Of a DNA stretch of 64,000 bases, positions 24,280 to 33,995 are shown one piece after another (the stretch's first letter is position 1; each line of letters begins with the position of its first letter). Below the pieces are notes generated by a model. That model did no database searches. It saw only the letters and a program-made list of their open reading frames with translations, and was not told where the DNA came from. Both the position numbers and the translations under genes were made by a program. Source of the stretch: an uncultured Bacilli bacterium (lineage in GTDB: Bacteria; Bacillota_I; Bacilli_A; RF39; UBA660); assembly GCA_944359055.1 (NCBI GenBank), contig CALVSO010000002.1, forward strand, positions 5,935-69,934. Reading direction: 5' to 3'.

Positions 24280-25141
24280 AAAAAGAGCTTTAGGTAGAGG
24301 CTTAGAACAATTGTTTAATAGTGAAAATTTGGATTTTGAAAATTTTGAAAAGCAAATATATGAAACAACTCCTAAAGATGAAATAGTTGAAATTAATTTG
24401 GATGAGATTAGACCTAATCCTCATCAACCTAGAAAAGTTTTTAAGGAAGATGCTTTAAATGAATTAGCCAGTTCAATAAAGAAGAATGGTGTTTTTCAAC
24501 CTATTATTGTTAAGAAAAGTATTAAGGGTTATGATTTAGTTGCTGGTGAAAGAAGATTTAGGGCTTCTAAATTAGCTGGTTTAACTACTATTCCTGCAAT
24601 TATAAGGGATTTTAGTGAAGAACAAATGATTGAAATAGCACTACTTGAAAACTTACAAAGAGAAAATTTAAATGTTATTGAAGAAGCCTTAGCTTATAAA
24701 TCAATGATTGAAAAATTAAATTTAACTCAAGAGGAATTAAGTGTTAAAGTTAGTAAAAGTAGAAGTCATATTACTAATATTTTAGGGTTATTAAGATTAC
24801 CTGAAGAAATTCAAAATATGATTATAAATAATGAATTAACTATGGGTCATGCTAGGGTATTAAGTAAACTAGAAGACCAAAATAAAATGTTAGAATATGC
24901 TAAAATGATAAAAGAAAATAAGTTACCAGTAAGAGAGACTGAACAAATTACTAACAATGAAGAAAGAAAAGTAAAAATAAAGAAGCATACTAATGATAAT
25001 AATGAATATAGGTATGTTGAAGATTTATTAAGAGATAAATTAGATACTAAAATTAAAGTAAAAGATAAAAAAGTAATTATATCTTTTACTAATGTTGCAG
25101 ATTTAAATAGAATATTAGAAATTTTAAATGTAAAAGAGTGA
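24269..25141 (+). CDS. parB: Chromosome partitioning protein ParB/Spo0J
   Basis: ALGRGLEQL N-terminus and GERRFRA ParB box. ATG 24269 overlaps the parA stop. Confidence 0.85.
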   Translation: MENRKRALGRGLEQLFNSENLDFENFEKQIYETTPKDEIVEINLDEIRPNPHQPRKVFKEDALNELASSIKKNGVFQPIIVKKSIKGYDLVAGERRFRASKLAGLTTIPAIIRDFSEEQMIEIALLENLQRENLNVIEEALAYKSMIEKLNLTQEELSVKVSKSRSHITNILGLLRLPEEIQNMIINNELTMGHARVLSKLEDQNKMLEYAKMIKENKLPVRETEQITNNEERKVKIKKHTNDNNEYRYVEDLLRDKLDTKIKVKDKKVIISFTNVADLNRILEILNVKE

Positions 25142-25145
25142 TAAA

Positions 25146-25946
25146 ATGGAAAAGGTATTAGAAGTATTATTATCTAAAGAGGTTATTGGTCCTATTATAA
25201 CTATTATTATAATGTTTGTATTATATAAAGTTATAAGAAGAATTATAGTAAGAGTTTTTAATGTTAGAACAAAAAAGATAAAGCAAAAGAAACAAGTTAC
25301 TTTAATGAATTTTTTTATTAATGTTTTAAGGGTAATAACTTTAATAATTACGGCTTTAATTATATTAGAAATATATGGTTTTAAAACTAGTACTATTGTT
25401 GCTTCATTAGGTGCTGTTACTGTTGTTATTGGGTTAGCTTTCCAAGATATTTTAAAAGATTTTATTGCTGGTATATCTTTTATATTTGAAGATAGTTATA
25501 ATGTTGGTGATTGGGTAACTATTAATGATTTTAAAGGTGAAGTAATAAGTATTGGTATGAAAACTACTAGAATAAGAGCTTATGAAGGTGAAATATTAAT
25601 TATTAATAATGGATCTATTACACAGGTTATTAATCATACAGCAGCTAATTCATTAGCTATTGTTGATGTTAATGTTTCTTATGATTCTAATATCGATAAG
25701 GTAGAAAAAGTTTTAAATGAATTATGCCAAAATATTAAATTAGATAACTTAAAAGGTAATATTGAAGTATTAGGTATTGAATCTTTAGGTGATAGTGCTA
25801 TTACTTTTAGAATTACGGCAGAAGTAGAAGCTGGTACACAGTATAGTACACAAAGAAAAATAAGAAAAGAAGTTAAATTAATATTAGATAAAAATAATAT
25901 TGAAATACCTTATAATCAATTGGTGGTACATAATGAAAGAGTATAA
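25146..25946 (+). CDS. Small-conductance mechanosensitive channel (MscS family)
   Basis: Three TM helices followed by the MscS beta-domain (GDWVTINDFKGEV...). Confidence 0.75.
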   Translation: MEKVLEVLLSKEVIGPIITIIIMFVLYKVIRRIIVRVFNVRTKKIKQKKQVTLMNFFINVLRVITLIITALIILEIYGFKTSTIVASLGAVTVVIGLAFQDILKDFIAGISFIFEDSYNVGDWVTINDFKGEVISIGMKTTRIRAYEGEILIINNGSITQVINHTAANSLAIVDVNVSYDSNIDKVEKVLNELCQNIKLDNLKGNIEVLGIESLGDSAITFRITAEVEAGTQYSTQRKIRKEVKLILDKNNIEIPYNQLVVHNERV

Positions 25947-26115
25947 ATTAGGAAGTATTGTTACAATGAAAAAAGATCATCCTTGTGGTACTAATGAATT
26001 TGAAGTTGTAAGAGTCGGTGCCGATATAAAGATTAAATGTTGCAAGTGTGGAAGAACAATTATGTTACCAAGAATAGAGTTTAACAAAAAATTAAAGAAA
26101 ATAATTAGTATATAG
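25933..26115 (+). CDS. DUF951 family small protein
   Basis: MKEYKLGSIVTMKKDHPCGTNEFEVVRVGADIKIKCCKCGR matches the DUF951 pattern that follows mscS in Bacillus-type loci. Confidence 0.55.
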   Translation: MKEYKLGSIVTMKKDHPCGTNEFEVVRVGADIKIKCCKCGRTIMLPRIEFNKKLKKIISI

Positions 26116-26125
26116 GGAGGATTTT

Positions 26126-27625
26126 ATGTCGAAAAAAAAGCAACCGAAATTATTGTCACCTGTAATAACTATGTGTATATTAATTTTAATAGCTCTAATT
26201 ACTAGTAGTTTTTTAGCTATTATTAATTTTGATGGAACTCAAACTACCATTGAAAATGGCATGTTAGAGACATCAATAATAGTTGTTAAAAATATTTTTT
26301 CTAAGGAAGGTTTAATATATTTATTTAGTAATATTATAACAAATTTTACATTGTTAGAACCTTTTGTATTAATAATTCTTTCTTTAATGGCGATAGGTAT
26401 TTTAAAAGAAAGTGGATTATTAAAGCATTTATTTGAACCTTTAAAAAAATTAAAACCAAATGTTTTAACTTTTATAGTTGTTTTTATAAGCGTTATATCA
26501 TCAATAGTTGGTGATTATAGTTATATAATTTTATTACCTTTAGTAGCTGTATTATATCAGTATGTTAATAAAAGTCCCGTTTTAGGAATTATAACAGTTT
26601 TTTTAGGTATAACTTTAGGATATGGAACTGGCATTTTTTATAACTATAATGATTATGCTTTAGGAGTATTAACCGAAGCAGCTGCAGTTATTGATGTTGA
26701 TCCATCATATAAATTTAATTTATATTCAAATTTGTATATCATGACTGTTAGTAGTGTAATTGTAACATTTTTAATTACTACTTTAATAGAAAAGTTTTTG
26801 AGTAAGAAAATTGCTACTACAGTTAAATATGATGATGATATTAAAACATCTAACAAAGCGTTATTATTTTCTATTATAAGTTTAATTATTTGCATTATTC
26901 CAATATTTATAATGATAATGCCTAATGGTATTTTATTGGATAATACACAAACAAAATATGTAGCTAAATTATTTAGTGCTAATGCTCCATTTAATTTATC
27001 ATTTATGTATTTATTTTTAATGATAATGGCTATTGTTGGATTGGTATATGGGTTTGTAAGTAAAAACTTTAAGAATAATCATGAATTTGGTTGGTCATTT
27101 ACTAAACAATTTGATAATATTGGGTATTTATTTGTTTTAATGTTTTTATCTTCAATTTTAATAGGAATTATTAATTGGACAAATTTAGGAACAGTAATTG
27201 CTAATAATTTAATTTCTATAATTAGTTTATTTGATTTTACTGGTATTCCTTTAATTGTTGTTTCATTTATATTTATAATACTTATGAGTATTTTAATACC
27301 TGGAAGTTTAGAAAAATGGGCATTAATTTCACCTATTTTAGTACCTTTATTTATGAGAGGAAATTTAACTCCAGATTTTGCTCAATTTGTATTTAAAGCA
27401 GCTGATAGTGTTGGTAAAATATTAACCCCTTTATTTGTTTATTTTATTGTTATGTTAGGATTCGTTCAAAAATATAATAAAAATGAAAATAAAGTTACAT
27501 TATTTAATACTGTTAAATTAATATGGCCAATTATTATTACAATGATTATATTCTGGTTATTGATATTAATTATTTGGTATATAGCAGGATTACCATTAGG
27601 GATTGATACTTTAGCTACTATGTAA
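26126..27625 (+). CDS. AbgT-family transporter (about 13 TM)
   Basis: N-terminal blocks (KEGLIYLFSNIITNFTLLEPFVLIILSLMAIGILKESGLLK; VVFISVISSIVGDYSYIILLPLVAV) resemble the AbgT/MtrF family. 499 aa, polytopic. Confidence 0.55.
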   Translation: MSKKKQPKLLSPVITMCILILIALITSSFLAIINFDGTQTTIENGMLETSIIVVKNIFSKEGLIYLFSNIITNFTLLEPFVLIILSLMAIGILKESGLLKHLFEPLKKLKPNVLTFIVVFISVISSIVGDYSYIILLPLVAVLYQYVNKSPVLGIITVFLGITLGYGTGIFYNYNDYALGVLTEAAAVIDVDPSYKFNLYSNLYIMTVSSVIVTFLITTLIEKFLSKKIATTVKYDDDIKTSNKALLFSIISLIICIIPIFIMIMPNGILLDNTQTKYVAKLFSANAPFNLSFMYLFLMIMAIVGLVYGFVSKNFKNNHEFGWSFTKQFDNIGYLFVLMFLSSILIGIINWTNLGTVIANNLISIISLFDFTGIPLIVVSFIFIILMSILIPGSLEKWALISPILVPLFMRGNLTPDFAQFVFKAADSVGKILTPLFVYFIVMLGFVQKYNKNENKVTLFNTVKLIWPIIITMIIFWLLILIIWYIAGLPLGIDTLATM

Positions 27626-27653
27626 ATTCAAGTTTAAAATACTTGAATTTTTA
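27625..27653 (+). terminator. Intrinsic terminator after the transporter gene
   Basis: aattcaagt-ttaaaat-acttgaatt 9-bp stem plus a T5 run. Confidence 0.6.
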
Positions 27654-27703
27654 TTAGTAAATATGCAATATTGTAAAATATATAACAAAAAACTATGTTT
27701 GAA

Positions 27704-27732
27704 TTGACAAATATCTGTTCGTATGGTATATT
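27704..27732 (+). promoter_or_regulatory. Near-consensus sigma-A promoter (TTGACA-17-TGgTATATT) driving the Panacea/toxin pair
   Basis: Hexamers and spacing read directly. RBS gggagg before ATG 27753. Confidence 0.6.
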
Positions 27733-27752
27733 GAAATCGGGAGGCAGGTAAT

Positions 27753-28211
27753 ATGGAAAAAATTGATAACATTGCGAAATGGTTTATAAATGAAATTTCT
27801 CCAGACCCATTAAAATTGCAAAAATTATTATATTTTGCGCAAGGTATTTCATTTTGTTTTAATGATGAAGAATTATTTGACGAAGAATTAGAAGCTTGGG
27901 TTCATGGACCTGTTAATAGTAATATATATTTTAAATATCGTGAATATATTTACAATCCAATAAATTTAAAATATCAAATTCCAAATTTTTCTCAAAAAAC
28001 ACTTCAAGTGTTAGAGTATGTGCGAGATAATTATGGCAAATATGATGCAAAATATTTAGAAGAAATAACTCATAATCAATATCCATGGCAGTTTGCAAGA
28101 GAAGGATTAGATCCAGATGAACGAGATAATAAAATAATTCCTAAAGAGGTTATTGCTGAATACTTTGTTAGCCTCATGTTACAACCAAATAGTGAGGAAT
28201 GGGATAAATGA
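27753..28211 (+). CDS. Panacea-domain (DUF4065, SocA-like) antitoxin
   Basis: MEKIDNIAKWFI...PLKLQKLLYFAQGISFCFNDEELFDEELEAWVHGPV is the characteristic DUF4065/Panacea N-terminal block. Confidence 0.7.
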   Translation: MEKIDNIAKWFINEISPDPLKLQKLLYFAQGISFCFNDEELFDEELEAWVHGPVNSNIYFKYREYIYNPINLKYQIPNFSQKTLQVLEYVRDNYGKYDAKYLEEITHNQYPWQFAREGLDPDERDNKIIPKEVIAEYFVSLMLQPNSEEWDK

Positions 28212-28582
28212 TTGGTGAAGTATGGTATTATAAGGCAAAATTACCTAATAGTGATGGATATAAAGCACGACCAGTATTAGTAATTGGAACAGATGCTAAT
28301 AATAATTTATTATATACTGATATTCACTATGTGATTATTTCTTCATCAGCTGCAATTGGAATATATGATGTCATTATTGATGAAGAAACTGCTAAGCAAA
28401 TTAATTTACTTCGTAAATCTGTTATTAAAACAACAAAGATATATACTGGCCCTAAAAATTTGTTTGAACGAAAACTTGGTACATTACCAGATGAGTTAAA
28501 ACAAGAATTTGTAAAGAAGTATCAAGAATATCAAAATCAATTAATTAACGATTTTATTACTAATGAGTTCGTAAACAATTGA
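28208..28582 (+). CDS. MazF/PemK-fold putative toxin, translationally coupled (ATGA) to the Panacea gene
   Basis: GEVWYYKAKLP...KARPVLVIGTD...YVIISSS aligns with MazF blocks GDLIWVDF...HRPAVVLSP...CVPCTTQ, including the Arg. Confidence 0.5.
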   Translation: MIGEVWYYKAKLPNSDGYKARPVLVIGTDANNNLLYTDIHYVIISSSAAIGIYDVIIDEETAKQINLLRKSVIKTTKIYTGPKNLFERKLGTLPDELKQEFVKKYQEYQNQLINDFITNEFVNN

Positions 28583-28649
28583 TTTTTTTATGTCTTGTTT
28601 TAAAATTAATAAAATGGTATACTATATAAGTATTTGAAGAGGTGATTAT

Positions 28650-29750
28650 ATGGCTTTAACAGCTGGAATAGTAGGTTTACCAAATGTTGGGAAAAGTACA
28701 TTGTTTAACGCAATAACAAAACAAAATATTTTGGCGGCTAATTATCCATTCGCTACTATTGAACCAAATGTTGGTGTAGTAATAGTACCAGATAAAAGAT
28801 TAGATTTTTTAAATAATCTATATCAACCTAAAAGTTTAGTGCCTACAGCTTTTGAATTTACTGATATAGCAGGTTTAGTAAGTGGTGCTTCACAAGGAGA
28901 AGGATTAGGTAATAAATTTTTATCTCATATAAGAGAAGTAGATGCAATAGTAGAAGTAGTAAGATGTTTTGAAAATAAAAATATTATTCATGTAGAAAAT
29001 ACTGTTGATCCAATTAGAGATATTGAAATAATTAATGTAGAACTTGTATTAGCTGATTTAGAAGTTGTAGAAAATAGATTAAATAGAATTGGTAAGAAAG
29101 CAGCTATGTCTAAAGATAAGGAAACAATTAAAGAGGTTGAATTATTAAATAAAGTAAAAGATAATTTAATTAAAAATTTTCCTTTAAGAAGAATGGAATT
29201 TGATAAAGAAGAATTAAAAATTTTAAAACCATTTAATTTTTTAACTTTAAAACCAATTATATATATGACTAATGTTAGTGAGGAAGATTTATTAAATAAA
29301 AATAATCCATACGTTATAAAAGTTGAAGGATACGCTGAAGCTGAAAATGCTAAGGTAATTAAAGTGTGTGCTAAAATAGAAGCAGAATTAAGTGATTTAA
29401 ATGAAGAAGAAAAAACAATATTTTTAAATGATTTAGGAATTGAAGAAAGTGGTTTAAATAAATTAATTAAAGCTACATATTCTTTATTAGGACTTCAAAC
29501 ATTCTTTACTGCTGGAACTGACGAAGTAAGAGCTTGGACATTTAAAAAAGGTATGAAAGCTCCAGAATGTGCTGGTATTATTCATACTGATTTTGAAAAA
29601 GGATTTATTAAAGCTGAAATATTTAGTTACTATGATTTAGAAAAATATGGTGACGAAAAATCTGTTAAAGAAGCAGGTAAGGTAAGATTAGAAGGTAAAG
29701 AATATTTAATGCAAGATGGCGATATTTGTTATTTTAGATTTAATAAATAA
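28650..29750 (+). CDS. ychF: Ribosome-binding ATPase YchF
   Basis: GIVGLPNVGKSTLFNA, TGS domain, 366 aa. Confidence 0.92.
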   Translation: MALTAGIVGLPNVGKSTLFNAITKQNILAANYPFATIEPNVGVVIVPDKRLDFLNNLYQPKSLVPTAFEFTDIAGLVSGASQGEGLGNKFLSHIREVDAIVEVVRCFENKNIIHVENTVDPIRDIEIINVELVLADLEVVENRLNRIGKKAAMSKDKETIKEVELLNKVKDNLIKNFPLRRMEFDKEELKILKPFNFLTLKPIIYMTNVSEEDLLNKNNPYVIKVEGYAEAENAKVIKVCAKIEAELSDLNEEEKTIFLNDLGIEESGLNKLIKATYSLLGLQTFFTAGTDEVRAWTFKKGMKAPECAGIIHTDFEKGFIKAEIFSYYDLEKYGDEKSVKEAGKVRLEGKEYLMQDGDICYFRFNK

Positions 29751-30224
29751 AGTAGCTATAATATCGATTATAAATAATATAATTAAGGCATAAGTAAAAT
29801 ATTTAGGTATTTTACTTATTATTTTATCTAATAAAGGTTTGATATAATATATTAAAATAATACTACTTAATCCCCAAATAATAGACATTTCTAAAGCAAT
29901 ATATTTACCAATATTAAATTTATAATTAGTATAATCCCAAAATGTTATATCAAAAATATATTCAATTAAATAACCACCAATTGCTTCAATTATTGTCAAG
30001 ATAAAACTACAACTAATAAACAATAATATTACTTTTAATATTTTATTTAAATTGAATTTAGTAATATATTTGTTTATTAAAAAAATTATAATAGTTCCGA
30101 TTCCGTAAACTGGTGTCCACCATCCGAATAAAATACCGCTATTACTTTTTATTATAAATGTTTCTATTAAGTGACCAATAAAAGATAAAATAAAAAAATA
30201 ATTTAAATAGTACATTATAATCAC
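29706..30224 (-). CDS. Hypothetical small polytopic membrane protein (4-5 TM)
   Basis: Hydrophobic ORF on the minus strand. Its 3' end overlaps ychF by 45 nt. Confidence 0.4.
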   Translation of the reverse strand: MIIMYYLNYFFILSFIGHLIETFIIKSNSGILFGWWTPVYGIGTIIIFLINKYITKFNLNKILKVILLFISCSFILTIIEAIGGYLIEYIFDITFWDYTNYKFNIGKYIALEMSIIWGLSSIILIYYIKPLLDKIISKIPKYFTYALIILFIIDIIATLFIKSKITNIAILH

Positions 30225-30304
30225 CTTTTATTAGTTTAATCAATTATGAAAAAAAACATTGACATTAACTTATAATTAATATATAATTAATTTGAGGTGA
30301 ATTT

Positions 30305-30751
30305 ATGAATATAATAGAAATAGCCAAAAAATATAATTTAATAAAAGAATTAAAAGATATAGATATAGTAGAAGATAACTCAATATATTTAAATGAAGAA
30401 AAAAGTAATTATAATTTTAAATATAATACTGGTGATATTGTATTTGTTAAAAAATATAATTATAATGATGGAACAAATGGTTCTAATCATTTATTTTTAA
30501 TAATTGAAGATAATTATATAGTTAGTATGGATTATTTTTGTCTACTAATATCTTCACAATTAGATAAATTAAAATATGATACAAATTTATTTTTAGCTAA
30601 AGATAACAAAAATAAATTAAAAAAGGATAGTATAATAAAATTAGATAGTATATATAGAATTGAAAATGAAGATATATTATTTAAGGTTGGTGAAGTTACA
30701 CAAGAAAAATTAAATATGTATCGTGATACATTTATAAAAATATATAGTTAA
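30305..30751 (+). CDS. Hypothetical protein with a divergent MazF/PemK-like fold and about 40-aa N-terminal extension
   Basis: GDIVFVKKYNY...HLFLIIED...CLLISSQ...KVGEVTQEKLNMY aligns to MazF blocks but lacks the conserved Arg. Good RBS gaggtga. Confidence 0.4.
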   Translation: MNIIEIAKKYNLIKELKDIDIVEDNSIYLNEEKSNYNFKYNTGDIVFVKKYNYNDGTNGSNHLFLIIEDNYIVSMDYFCLLISSQLDKLKYDTNLFLAKDNKNKLKKDSIIKLDSIYRIENEDILFKVGEVTQEKLNMYRDTFIKIYS

Positions 30752-30854
30752 ACTATTTACAAATTAAAATAAGTTTGTTATAATCTTAAGCGAGTAAGAA
30801 ATTTACTCCTTGCTTTTATTTATAAAAGCCAATAGTCCATAAGGAGGTGTTAGA

Positions 30855-31145
30855 ATGCGTAAATATGAAATTATGTTTATAGCAAGACCAACTTTATCTG
30901 AAGAAGAAAAGAAAAATGTTATTGCTAAATTTTCTAAAATTTTAACAGATAATAAGGCTACTATAACTGGTGAAAAAGATATGGGACAAAGAGAATTAGC
31001 TTACGAAATTAAAGATTTCAAATCAGGTTTCTATTATGTTATTACTCTTGAAGCTAATGATGATGTAGCTATTAGTGAATTTGATAGACAAGCTAGAAAT
31101 TCACAAGACATCATTCGTCATTTGATTACAAAAATCGAAGACTAA
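30855..31145 (+). CDS. rpsF: 30S ribosomal protein S6
   Basis: MRKYEIMFIARP N-terminus. Confidence 0.92.
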   Translation: MRKYEIMFIARPTLSEEEKKNVIAKFSKILTDNKATITGEKDMGQRELAYEIKDFKSGFYYVITLEANDDVAISEFDRQARNSQDIIRHLITKIED

Positions 31146-31154
31146 GGAGGAAAT

Positions 31155-31607
31155 ATGAATAGAGTTTTATTAGTAGGAAGATTAACTGCTAAGCCAGAAT
31201 TAAGATATACTAATTCTAATTTACCATATACTCGTTTTTCTGTAGCAGTAGATGGTATTCCAAGTGCCAATGGAGAAAGAAGAACTGACTTCATTAATAC
31301 AGTTGCATGGAGAAAACAAGCAGAAAATATTTGCCAATATTTGGATAAAGGTAGTTTAGTTTCTGTTGAAGGAAGACTTCAAACAAGTAATTATACAGAT
31401 AAAGATGGTAATAAAAGATATTCAATGGATGTGCAAGCAGATAATGTAAGATTTTTAGAATCTCGTGCTCAAGCACAAGGTAGGGCAAATAATGTATCTA
31501 CTACTCCATATGATTTCCAACAACCATCTAATGATGTTAATATCGATAATGATCCTTTTGCTGATTTCGGTGATAGCGTATCAATCGATGATAACTTTTT
31601 AGATTAA
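31155..31607 (+). CDS. ssb: Single-stranded DNA-binding protein
   Basis: MNRVLLVGRLT...acidic tail DDNFLD... with a terminal DF motif region. Confidence 0.9.
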   Translation: MNRVLLVGRLTAKPELRYTNSNLPYTRFSVAVDGIPSANGERRTDFINTVAWRKQAENICQYLDKGSLVSVEGRLQTSNYTDKDGNKRYSMDVQADNVRFLESRAQAQGRANNVSTTPYDFQQPSNDVNIDNDPFADFGDSVSIDDNFLD

Positions 31608-31619
31608 GGAGGAATATAA

Positions 31620-31838
31620 ATGGCTGAATTTTATCGTAAAAAGAAAAAAGTTTGCCAAATGTGTGCTGGTAAAGATGTTGATTATAAAGACGTTGAAACT
31701 ATCAAAAGATACATAAGTAATGAAAAAGGTAAAATTTTACCTCGTAGAATTACTGGTGCATGTGCAAAACATCAAAGACATATAGCTAATGAAATTAAAA
31801 AAGCTCGTTTTATGGCTTTAATTCCATTTACAAAATAG
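31620..31838 (+). CDS. rpsR: 30S ribosomal protein S18
   Basis: Conserved RRITG...KHQR motif. Confidence 0.92.
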
Positions 31839-31880
31839 TAAATGGTTTTTTTGTAACATATATGAAGAGGGTGAATAAAT

Positions 31881-33995
31881 ATGGAATTATTGTCTCCTGC
31901 TGGTGATTTTGAGAGTTTAAAAGCTGCCATATTAGGTGGTTGTGATGCAGTATATTTGGGTGGAAAATTATTTGGAGCTAGAGCTTTTTCAAATAATTTT
32001 AATAATGAAGAATTAATTGAAGCAATTAAATATGCTCATTTATATGGAGTTAAAGTATATGTAACTGTAAATACTTTAATATATGAAAATGAAGTAGATA
32101 AATTTATGAACTATGTAGAATTTTTATATAAAAACAATGTTGATGCTTTAATTATTCAAGATATTGGAATGATGGATTTAATTAGAAAAACTTTTCCTTT
32201 ATTAGAGCTACATGCATCAACTCAAATGCATATTCATAATTTAGAAGGCGTTAAGTTAGTAGAAAGTTTAGGTTTAAAACGAGCTGTTTTAGCAAGAGAA
32301 ACACCAATTGAATTAATTGAAGAAATTAAAAAAAATACTGATATAGAATTAGAAATATTTGTTCATGGGGCTTTATGTGTAAGTTATTCTGGACAATGCT
32401 TATTTAGCAGTCTAATTGGTAATCGAAGTGGTAATCGAGGAAGTTGTGCAGGTAGTTGTAGACAAAAATATAATTTATTAGTTGATGGCAAAAAAGTTAA
32501 TAAAGATAATTATCTGTTAAGCTGTAAAGATTTATGTACTATTGAAGATATTGGTAAATTGATTGATATTGGTGTTGACAGCTTTAAAATAGAAGGTAGA
32601 ATGAAATCTCCAGAGTATGTTTATTTAGTTACTAAATTATATAGACAAGCAATAGATTCTTATGTTGCTGGTAAAGAAGTTAAAATAGATTTAACAGAAT
32701 TAAAAAAAATATTTAATCGTGAGTATACTAAGGGATTTTTATTTAATGAAATAAATATTGTAAATGAATATCGACCAAATCATTTAGGAGTAGAAATAGG
32801 AAAGGTAATAAAATCACAAAATAATTATGTTGATATATTATTAACAGATGAATTAAATATAAATGATGGTATAAGATTTATTAATAATGATGTTGGTTTT
32901 ATAGTAACACAAATATTTAAAAATAAAAAAAGAATAAATAAAGGAAATATTGGCGATGTAATATCTATTTATTGTAAGGATAAGGTATCTGGTAATGTAG
33001 TTAAAACTTACGATTATTTATTGAATAAAAAAATAGATGATATTTTAAAAATAAATAAAAAAATAAACATTAAAGGCAATTTAGAAGTTTATATTAATAA
33101 TAAAATTAAATTAGAAATTACTGATGGTAAAAATGATGTTGTATTATATGGTAATGTAGTTAATGAAGCTATTAATAGTCCGATATCTTTTGATAGAATA
33201 AAAGAACAATTAAATAAACTAGGTAATACTATATATGAATTTGAAGAATTAAATATTGTTGGTGATTCTAATATATTTATTCCAATTAAAGAATTAAATG
33301 ATATAAAAAATAAATTTGTTAATTTGTTAAATGAAAAAAGATTATATAAATATGAATATGTAAAAAAAGAATATAGTATTAATTTGCCTGACTTCCCTAA
33401 AGAAAAAAATTACAATATTTTAATTAATGATATAAAAGATTATGATAAAAATAGTAATTACAAATATATTTATATGAATGAAAATTTATATAATAAAATA
33501 GATGATACTAGAAAAGTATTAAGACTAGATCGTGTAATTGAAAGACATAAAGAATATAATAAAAAATTATTAGTAGGTGAATTAGGTAGTTTAATATATA
33601 AAGATATATTAAGTGATTTTTCATTTAATGTTACTAATTCCTATTCCGTAGCATTTTTACATAGTAATAACGTTAAACAAATATGTTTATCTTATGAATT
33701 AACTGATACTCAAATTAAAAATATAATTGATGCATATCATAATAGATATCATAAACATCCTAATTTAGAGTTAGTTGTATATGGTAATTTAGAAGCAATG
33801 GTATCTAAATATAACATTAATAAAAAATATAATGTTAGTAATTCAATATTAGAAGATAGATTTAAAAATAAATATCCGATCGTTATTAAAAATGATTTAA
33901 TGCATATATATGATTATAAAAAAAGAAATTATCAAGATCATAATAAATATTTTGAAATGGGTATTAATAATTTAAGGTATAATAAAGACGTATAA
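31881..33995 (+). CDS. Peptidase U32 family protein (collagenase-like, long form with a C-terminal extension)
   Basis: MELLSPAGDFESLKAAILGGCDAVYLGG and E..H..GALC motifs. Confidence 0.8.
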   Translation: MELLSPAGDFESLKAAILGGCDAVYLGGKLFGARAFSNNFNNEELIEAIKYAHLYGVKVYVTVNTLIYENEVDKFMNYVEFLYKNNVDALIIQDIGMMDLIRKTFPLLELHASTQMHIHNLEGVKLVESLGLKRAVLARETPIELIEEIKKNTDIELEIFVHGALCVSYSGQCLFSSLIGNRSGNRGSCAGSCRQKYNLLVDGKKVNKDNYLLSCKDLCTIEDIGKLIDIGVDSFKIEGRMKSPEYVYLVTKLYRQAIDSYVAGKEVKIDLTELKKIFNREYTKGFLFNEINIVNEYRPNHLGVEIGKVIKSQNNYVDILLTDELNINDGIRFINNDVGFIVTQIFKNKKRINKGNIGDVISIYCKDKVSGNVVKTYDYLLNKKIDDILKINKKINIKGNLEVYINNKIKLEITDGKNDVVLYGNVVNEAINSPISFDRIKEQLNKLGNTIYEFEELNIVGDSNIFIPIKELNDIKNKFVNLLNEKRLYKYEYVKKEYSINLPDFPKEKNYNILINDIKDYDKNSNYKYIYMNENLYNKIDDTRKVLRLDRVIERHKEYNKKLLVGELGSLIYKDILSDFSFNVTNSYSVAFLHSNNVKQICLSYELTDTQIKNIIDAYHNRYHKHPNLELVVYGNLEAMVSKYNINKKYNVSNSILEDRFKNKYPIVIKNDLMHIYDYKKRNYQDHNKYFEMGINNLRYNKDV

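Follow-up and report, generated by a model that had tools for sequence, protein, structure and literature searches.

A candidate Panacea–PemK toxin–antitoxin cassette between abgT and ychF in an uncultured Bacilli bacterium

Layout of the locus

In the window, by which we mean the whole 64,000-nucleotide stretch of DNA analysed here, two overlapping genes lie between the gene of an AbgT-family transporter and ychF, within the origin-proximal parAB...rpsF-ssb-rpsR region. The first, panA, encodes a 152-residue Panacea protein and the second, panT, a 124-residue protein of the PemK/MazF family, below also referred to as the toxin, with the stop codon of panA and the start codon of panT sharing the letters ATGA. 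Together with the surrounding signals, the locus comprises the following elements, in 5' to 3' order.

27624..27655, + strand: terminator-like hairpin of abgT, with a 10-bp A/U-rich stem, a 7-nt loop and a U-rich tail
27704..27732, + strand: sigma-70-type promoter, TTGACA-17-TATATT, with an extended -10 TG at 27724-27725 (11/12 match)
27740..27744, + strand: panA ribosome-binding site GGAGG, 8 nt before the ATG (read from the sequence)
27753..28211, + strand: panA, predicted standalone Panacea antitoxin of 152 residues (Pfam PF13274)
28194..28198, + strand: toxin Shine-Dalgarno sequence GAGGA, 9 nt before the toxin ATG and within the codons of the PanA tail (S-E-E-W)
28208..28582, + strand: panT, predicted PemK/MazF-family toxin of 124 residues (Pfam PF02452)
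28595..28623, + strand: promoter of ychF itself, with a weak -35 TTGTTT, a 17-nt spacer and an extended -10 TGgTATACT (read from the sequence)

Both neighbouring genes are intact, as AbgT (499 residues) and YchF (366 residues) show full Pfam coverage under translation table 11. An alternative code in which TGA specifies tryptophan, which would lengthen PanA, was rejected based on these two intact proteins and on the end position shared by the PanA homologues.

The hairpin following abgT reaches -8.5 kcal/mol in RNA folding, with z = -3.28 relative to shuffled sequences, and is missing from a scan for consensus terminators since its stem holds fewer than three G-C pairs. Directly after it comes the panA promoter, 20 nt 5' of the ATG. 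The preliminary description of this DNA had singled out TTGACA-17-TGgTATATT as a near-perfect promoter driving the pair, a view that holds for the position and conservation of the element, but not for its match to consensus, which alone is at the level of chance in DNA of 25% GC. Specifically, the 64 kb contain seven sites with at least 11/12 matches, where Markov shuffles give 7.0 +/- 2.4, and two that also carry the TG, where 0.3 are expected. The promoter is retained in three orthologous loci (L013, L014 and L007, the last with TTGACA-17-TGaTATTAT) whose spacers have otherwise diverged, and this conservation reaches orthologous loci down to 68-72% protein identity. Hence, we accept the element as the operon promoter based on placement and conservation.

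At the other end, no terminator was found between the toxin gene and ychF, the segment 28575-28650 folding no better than shuffles (z = +1.14), so that read-through from the two-gene unit into ychF is possible. Comparison of the orthologous loci revealed no conserved operator in the promoter, and a repeat search across the unit gave nothing convincing, whether as direct repeats at its flanks, as inverted repeats or as an operator palindrome. Rfam returned no match at E ≤ 0.1 over 25000-32500.

The two proteins and their conservation as a module

The 124-residue protein is recognised by the Pfam PemK_toxin model PF02452 (E = 1.2e-8; score 35.5 bits, cut-off 23.1; alignment spanning positions 3-100 of the 109 in the profile) and by PHROG 1936, 'MazF-like growth inhibitor', of the category 'moron' (E = 3.3e-9). 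A profile built from 43 toxin homologues and compared to PDB sequences retrieved MazF6 of M. tuberculosis, EndoA of B. subtilis, MoxT of B. anthracis and S. aureus MazF at E-values from 4e-6 to 2e-4, with MazF6 and EndoA scoring best at about 4-5e-6. In agreement, the AlphaFold model (pLDDT 93.7, pTM 0.84) adopts an SH3-like beta barrel followed by a long C-terminal helix (residues 95-123), and the best 50 Foldseek matches to the PDB are all MazF, with probability 1.00 and TM-scores of 0.61-0.81, led by 5hkc (E = 4.8e-7) and 4mdx (E = 8.5e-7).

The arginine of the presumed active site is in place. R21, located in KARPVLVIG, aligns with the arginine of the RP motif in EndoA and MazF-mt3 ('VRPVLVIQ' / 'RRPVLVIQ'); the catalytic arginine of B. 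subtilis MazF, located in the beta1-beta2 region, is reportedly R25. MazF proteins carry a catalytic threonine or serine at the end of strand 3, T48 in B. subtilis MazF and T52 in MazF-mt3. In the toxin model, a run of three serines, S45-S46-S47, occupies the end of strand 3, and HMM alignments position T48 of EndoA at I44, one residue before S45, and T52 of MazF-mt3 at S47 or A48. Among the 43 homologues, R21 and S45 are invariant and S47 is conserved in at least 90%. The toxin subfamily is compact: out of 1.84 billion, only 19 representatives score E ≤ 1e-10, and the next matches, after a gap, are generic MazF.

PanA matches the Pfam model SocA_Panacea (PF13274) across the entire profile, positions 1-113 of 113 (E = 1.1e-17; score 65.4 bits, cut-off 25.7), as well as PHROG 1281 (E = 8e-39). 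It is a standalone protein, devoid of an N-terminal DNA-binding or accessory domain and of any further Pfam match. Neither the AlphaFold model, searched with Foldseek, nor the sequence, searched with phmmer, has a significant counterpart in the PDB. The model is confident overall (pLDDT 93.0), dropping to 69/53 over the last 12 residues.

These assignments bear out what the preliminary description had read from the letters, namely a DUF4065/Panacea signature in the 152-residue frame and, overlapping it by ATGA, a 124-residue MazF/PemK-like protein with the conserved arginine, a Ser/Thr-rich strand (S45-S47) and a C-terminal helix. In the Pfam search that it had suggested, both reading frames score above the curated cut-offs, and the shorter one carries toxin similarity.

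PanA has 201 homologues, and an alignment of PanA homologues places the most conserved stretch of the protein outside the Pfam domain, in a C-terminal extension with R116, GLDPDER at 118-124, K127, I134, Y137-F138, Q144-P145 and W150. The final ten residues (143-152) form an acidic tail of low model confidence that includes the conserved tryptophan. Judging from this sequence pattern, we propose that the C-terminal extension and the acidic, tryptophan-containing tail may contact the toxin, and the conservation peak hence provides a concrete hypothesis for the site of neutralisation. As the Shine-Dalgarno sequence of the toxin overlaps the codons of the EEW tail, their conservation may in part act at the RNA level.

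The two genes constitute a conserved two-gene module. The 23 contigs examined that hold an exact copy of the toxin share a single neighbourhood, in the order ftsH, parA, parB, mscS, DUF951, abgT, panA, pemK, ychF, CmpB-like, second PemK-like, rpsF-ssb-rpsR. More distant homologues (53-68% identity) are found in unrelated contexts, including folD/PPDK, a toxin–antitoxin island in a Defluviitaleaceae MAG, a prophage end and a position beside an MqsR-HTH-Panacea system, and a Panacea gene lies directly upstream in five out of five. With one genome taken per species, the gene directly upstream of the toxin is an intact panA in 37 of 39 genomes and a panA remnant in the other two, and PanA or its remnant is also directly upstream in six further metagenomic or viral loci. 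The hosts of the 39 loci are nearly all uncultured Bacilli, Clostridia, Oscillospiraceae and 'Tenericutes' MAGs from gut or termite gut. The junction is tight throughout, with a gap of -4 in 14, -1 in 25 and 0 to +2 in 3 of the 42 loci that could be scored, and the identities of PanA and the toxin to the window proteins co-vary (r = 0.91, a value not corrected for phylogeny).

Both genes are under purifying selection, with dN/dS of 0.10-0.13 for PanA and 0.02-0.13 for the toxin relative to close orthologues, and 0.3-0.4 for both genes relative to L007.

A second, orphan PemK-like protein is encoded nearby (30305..30751), which has no BLASTP similarity to the window toxin. The notion that PanA obligately neutralises this protein in trans was rejected, as each occurs without the other: L054 has the second gene but not the pair, and L007 the pair but not the second gene.

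Origin and mobility of the cassette

The preliminary description had placed the pair in a housekeeping neighbourhood, between a transporter gene and ychF. The flanks are confirmed, but the copy itself is an insertion. In a related species (L054, AbgT 71% identical), abgT and its hairpin are followed by 80 bp and then ychF, and the pair is absent; the 80-bp spacer carries the ychF promoter (TGaTATACT...AGAGGTGATTAAATG) as in the window. The pair is also absent from a more distant relative (L056). Judged by the empty abgT-ychF site of the related species, about 0.9 kb (roughly 27656-28590) has been inserted here as a cassette, with the abgT hairpin marking its left edge and the ychF promoter its right edge.

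At least seven related genomes at species level (L007, L012-L017) have kept the cassette between abgT and ychF. Synonymous divergence between the window and L013 amounts to 0.20/0.27 for the cassette and 0.87 for ychF, and this lower divergence of the cassette compared to its ychF flank suggests recent exchange. Base composition offers no clear foreign signature, as the GC content of the cassette (0.24-0.31) is set against 0.22-0.28 in the flanks, and the window holds no tRNA usable as an integration site.

Related pairs elsewhere sit among phage genes. At a prophage end (L010), a holin and an amidase are followed by two small ORFs, PanA-PemK and a recombinase; in an IMG/VR contig (L058), a holin and an endolysin precede PanA-PemK; and in the Streptococcus prophage Javan252 the lysis genes are followed by PanA and then PemK. 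In L039, an amidase lies before the pair, which adjoins ychF there too. PanA homologues at 35-40% identity are present in 79 phage records, several of them following lysis cassettes. Collectively, we consider that the PanA-PemK family probably spreads as a phage-borne 'moron'. No phage genes are found in the flanks of the window copy. The filled and empty sites, combined with the lysis-cassette location in prophages, document movement of the cassette into core, origin-proximal regions of reduced genomes.

Proposed role and relation to known systems

Based on these analyses, we propose that the locus is probably a chromosomal PanAT-type (type II) toxin–antitoxin cassette of an uncultured gut bacterium from the Bacilli/Mycoplasmatota lineage, close to Candidatus Faecisoma, in which an RNase-type toxin is sequestered by a standalone Panacea protein. 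Transcription from the single promoter would yield a bicistronic mRNA, from which panA is presumably translated first, with translation of the toxin coupled to it through the ATGA overlap and the internal GAGGA, an arrangement that would keep the antitoxin in excess. The toxin may operate as a ribosome-independent, sequence-specific endoribonuclease using Arg21 and a serine at the end of strand 3 (S45-S47), and when free would arrest translation. PanA, in turn, is predicted to bind the toxin directly and hold it inactive. The preliminary description had put forward a candidate PanAT pair with a promoter of its own, a reading that agrees with the profile, fold and comparative evidence, from which we infer RNase activity, toxicity and direct PanA-toxin binding. 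Biologically, the cassette is likely to serve in addiction or in abortive infection against phages. The autoregulation usual for type II systems is left unexplained by this mechanism, since PanA has no recognisable DNA-binding domain.

The preliminary description had regarded the antitoxin-first order and the pairing with an mRNA-interferase-like toxin as unusual. However, both are already catalogued by Kurata et al. 2022 (PNAS 119:e2102212119, PMC8832971), who report PemK as one of the toxin domains that occur together with Panacea. In their Dataset S1, the clusters T5, T6, T8 and T9 are EndoA/PemK/MazF-like, all in 'A|T' order and with gaps such as -1 and -4 (PMC8832971). Cluster T9, 'PemK_toxin superfamily', combines standalone PanA ('noNTD') with many gaps of -4 and occurs in Firmicutes, Fusobacteria and Listeria phage B025, examples being Streptobacillus ratti, Blautia hydrogenotrophica, Enterococcus hermanniensis, B025 gp27/gp28 and the Streptococcus henryi prophage Javan252 (PMC8832971). 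The window pair hence adds to the known PanA-PemK pairing and is not a new combination. In functional terms, the PanTs of P. moraviensis (T6) and B. ruminantium, predicted by HHpred to be EndoA/PemK/MazF-like, specifically inhibit protein synthesis and are neutralised by their PanA, and validated PanA antitoxins form complexes with their toxins (PMC8832971). In the same study, two MazF-like candidates of T5 failed validation, and the sole T9 member assayed, gp28 of Listeria phage B025, was 'not toxic' in E. coli (PMC8832971). Ernits et al. 2023 (PMC10440598) describe direct neutralisation of toxins by standalone Panacea and suggest that the domain acts as a sensor. A literature search covering 2022 onward retrieved no subsequent study of PanA-MazF pairs.

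Alternatively, the pair may primarily be a phage-borne module for defence or superinfection exclusion (abortive infection), in which PanA would act as a sensor that frees the RNase upon infection, the window copy being a stranded prophage moron. We regard this as possible, if on the doubtful side. The location of family members directly after holin or endolysin genes at the ends of prophages and viral contigs (L010, L058, Javan252), and the amidase in L039, is as expected for such a module, yet the window copy itself is free of flanking phage genes. Likewise, PanA homologues occur in the 79 phage records, several behind lysis cassettes, whereas tblastn with the toxin returned nothing from collections of 50,697 phage records and 72,556 plasmids, and its subfamily is represented in IMG/VR by one contig only. 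The 'moron' category of the PHROG match to the toxin, the sensor role put forward by Ernits et al. (PMC10440598) and the lower divergence of the cassette than of its flank towards L013 are compatible with defence, but none of the three proteins searched, PanA and the toxin among them, matches a PADLOC defence model. This alternative concerns the biological role and is compatible with a toxin–antitoxin mechanism.

It is also conceivable, though decidedly unlikely, that growth inhibition by RNA cleavage is not the function of the PemK-fold protein, which would be inactive or restricted to a narrow substrate, and that the two proteins form a non-toxic complex with another role. The outcome for B025, the sole T9-type PanA-PemK pair tested, would fit, but the arginine of catalytic type is invariant and the Ser-rich end of the strand conserved among the 43 homologues, and in two divergent relatives in which no PanA is found in the 160-350 nt upstream, the toxin arginine is replaced by K or E. 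The manner in which the locus decays also bears on this point. L049 and L050 combine an intact PanA with a toxin disrupted by frameshift or truncation, the direction of decay expected for a toxin–antitoxin pair, and in L048 both genes are truncated, so that the toxin has decayed in three genomes that keep PanA or a PanA remnant. Conversely, the L034 MAG has an intact toxin beside a panA broken by an in-frame stop and a frameshift, which, unless it stems from an assembly error, hints that the toxin is tolerable without its antitoxin. The stable maintenance of the cassette beside essential genes in the seven or more related species-level genomes would also fit, but the purifying selection on both genes and the conserved stop/start coupling, typical of toxin–antitoxin pairs sensitive to stoichiometry, argue against this reading.

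A type VI mechanism, in which the Panacea protein delivers the toxin to ClpXP for degradation instead of sequestering it, appears highly improbable, for although SocA is the protein in which Panacea was originally recognised and the NCBIfam SocA equivalog model NF047745 matches PanA weakly (E = 8.6e-15), the score of 54.9 bits falls far below the cut-off of 190, the partner has a MazF fold and is no SocB-type DnaN-binding toxin, and the PanA antitoxins that have been validated associate stably with their toxins in complexes (PMC8832971).

Returning to the PanAT-type cassette as the preferred reading, we note a more elaborate scenario that we consider unlikely as a whole. A temperate-phage moron would serve as an abortive-infection switch, in which a MazF dimer is neutralised by the invariant C-terminal extension and acidic tryptophan-containing tail of PanA, acting as a convergent mimic of the C-terminal tail of MazE, and the toxin is released upon a phage cue; this switch would have been captured next to oriC in a Faecisoma-like lineage, where it reads through into ychF. 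If true, it would be the first functional PanAT of the T9 type and the first tractable case of how a Panacea core blocks a MazF-fold RNase.

In conclusion, a PanAT pair was recognisable here from reading the sequence alone, and the analysis adds to the published class a sharply defined PanA-PemK subfamily from uncultured gut bacteria that, clustered at 90% identity, comprises about 170 toxin clusters and 200 antitoxin clusters, the two always occurring as a pair. Toxicity is so far on record for none of the Pfam-positive (T9-type) PanA-PemK pairs, and the very conserved window family is therefore a good candidate for such a test. The significance is modest, and current understanding is not overturned.

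Compared to known systems, the window pair is closest in layout to the T9 PanATs, with which it shares a standalone PanA, the antitoxin-to-toxin order, the frequent -4 overlap, the PemK_toxin domain, a host range in Firmicutes and Fusobacteria, and the association with prophages. The Javan252 toxin aligns with the profile of the window family at an hhalign probability of 83% (E = 9e-6), with K-x-RPVLI and ISS motifs common to both, and the Javan252 PanA is 38% identical to the window PanA. The window toxin differs in that its subfamily is compact and distinct, with nearly all members coming from uncultured gut and termite-gut MAGs. The P. moraviensis and B. ruminantium pairs similarly combine a Panacea antitoxin with an EndoA/PemK/MazF-like toxin, in P. 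moraviensis also in A|T order with overlapping genes. However, their toxins have no CDD or Pfam match and are detected by HHpred only, whereas the window toxin passes the Pfam PemK threshold, and the host phyla differ. With SocAB, the type VI system of Caulobacter, the window pair has in common the Panacea/DUF4065 domain of the antitoxin, but PanA scores below the SocA equivalog cut-off and the toxin is unrelated to SocB. Finally, canonical MazEF/PemIK systems such as EndoAI-EndoA share the toxin fold, the RP-arginine motif, the antitoxin-first operon and translational coupling with the window pair, in which the antitoxin is instead an all-helical Panacea protein, different from MazE/PemI of the AbrB or RHH type.

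Divergence of the cassette and insertions beside ychF

In comparison with L013 (3546..4372), an orthologous locus that retains the pair beside ychF, the PanA-PemK cassette of the window (27753..28582) displays dS values of 0.20 and 0.27, as opposed to 0.87 for the adjacent ychF. The much lower divergence of the cassette relative to ychF suggests that it has recently been recombined or transferred between species. For the orthologous loci L014 and L007, the divergence values of the cassette resemble those of the flank.

In a distant 'Clostridia bacterium' MAG (L039, 3537..5503), with a toxin that is 53-57% identical, the pair is located directly upstream of ychF, with hrcA as the right neighbour past ychF and an Amidase_2/PG-binding protein to the left, in place of abgT. 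This arrangement could reflect recurrent insertion at ychF or, alternatively, coincidence. At the orthologous locus L017 (4598..5839), the toxin gene and ychF are separated by an inserted gene for an AAA_14/DUF4143 ATPase, and the intergenic space adjoining ychF thus seems to take up insertions repeatedly.

A second PemK-like ORF in the window

The window also holds an orphan PemK-like gene with its own promoter:

30259..30287, promoter of the orphan gene, TTGACA-17-TATAAT, a perfect 12/12 match
30305..30751, orphan PemK-like ORF of 148 aa, Pfam PF02452 (E 4.6e-8)

The GC content around this ORF, 0.16-0.17, is the lowest of the region, and no antitoxin ORF is located beside it. The encoded protein carries an N-terminal extension of 42 aa, and the catalytic V/R-R position of MazF is replaced by N-H. 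The orphan gene is present in L054, a related species that lacks the PanA pair, and is absent from L007, where the pair is found. Its family is narrow, comprising 65 clusters, most of them at least 83% identical; Candidatus Faecisoma merdavium is the named source of one of them. A distant Clostridium MAG (L042) carries a PanA-PemK pair with a 119-aa homologue of the orphan 1.6 kb downstream.

Altered toxins, a broken antitoxin gene and clustered systems

The invariant Arg is replaced by K or E in two divergent toxin relatives from a single sample of origin (L059, 161..553, and L060, 354..722; 45-47% identical), and no PanA-like sequence was detected in the 160-353 nt available upstream of them. 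In the MAG L034 (689..1496), panA contains an in-frame TAA and a frameshift upstream of an intact toxin gene. This order of decay is the reverse of the usual one, and therefore represents either an error in MAG assembly or evidence that the toxin is tolerable without its antitoxin.

In the metagenomic contig L011 (2540..3817), the PanA-PemK pair is preceded, at a distance of approximately 0.7 kb, by a second Panacea system consisting of an MqsR toxin, an HTH protein and a 198-aa Panacea protein, and the contig hence contains two PanAT-type modules in one cluster.
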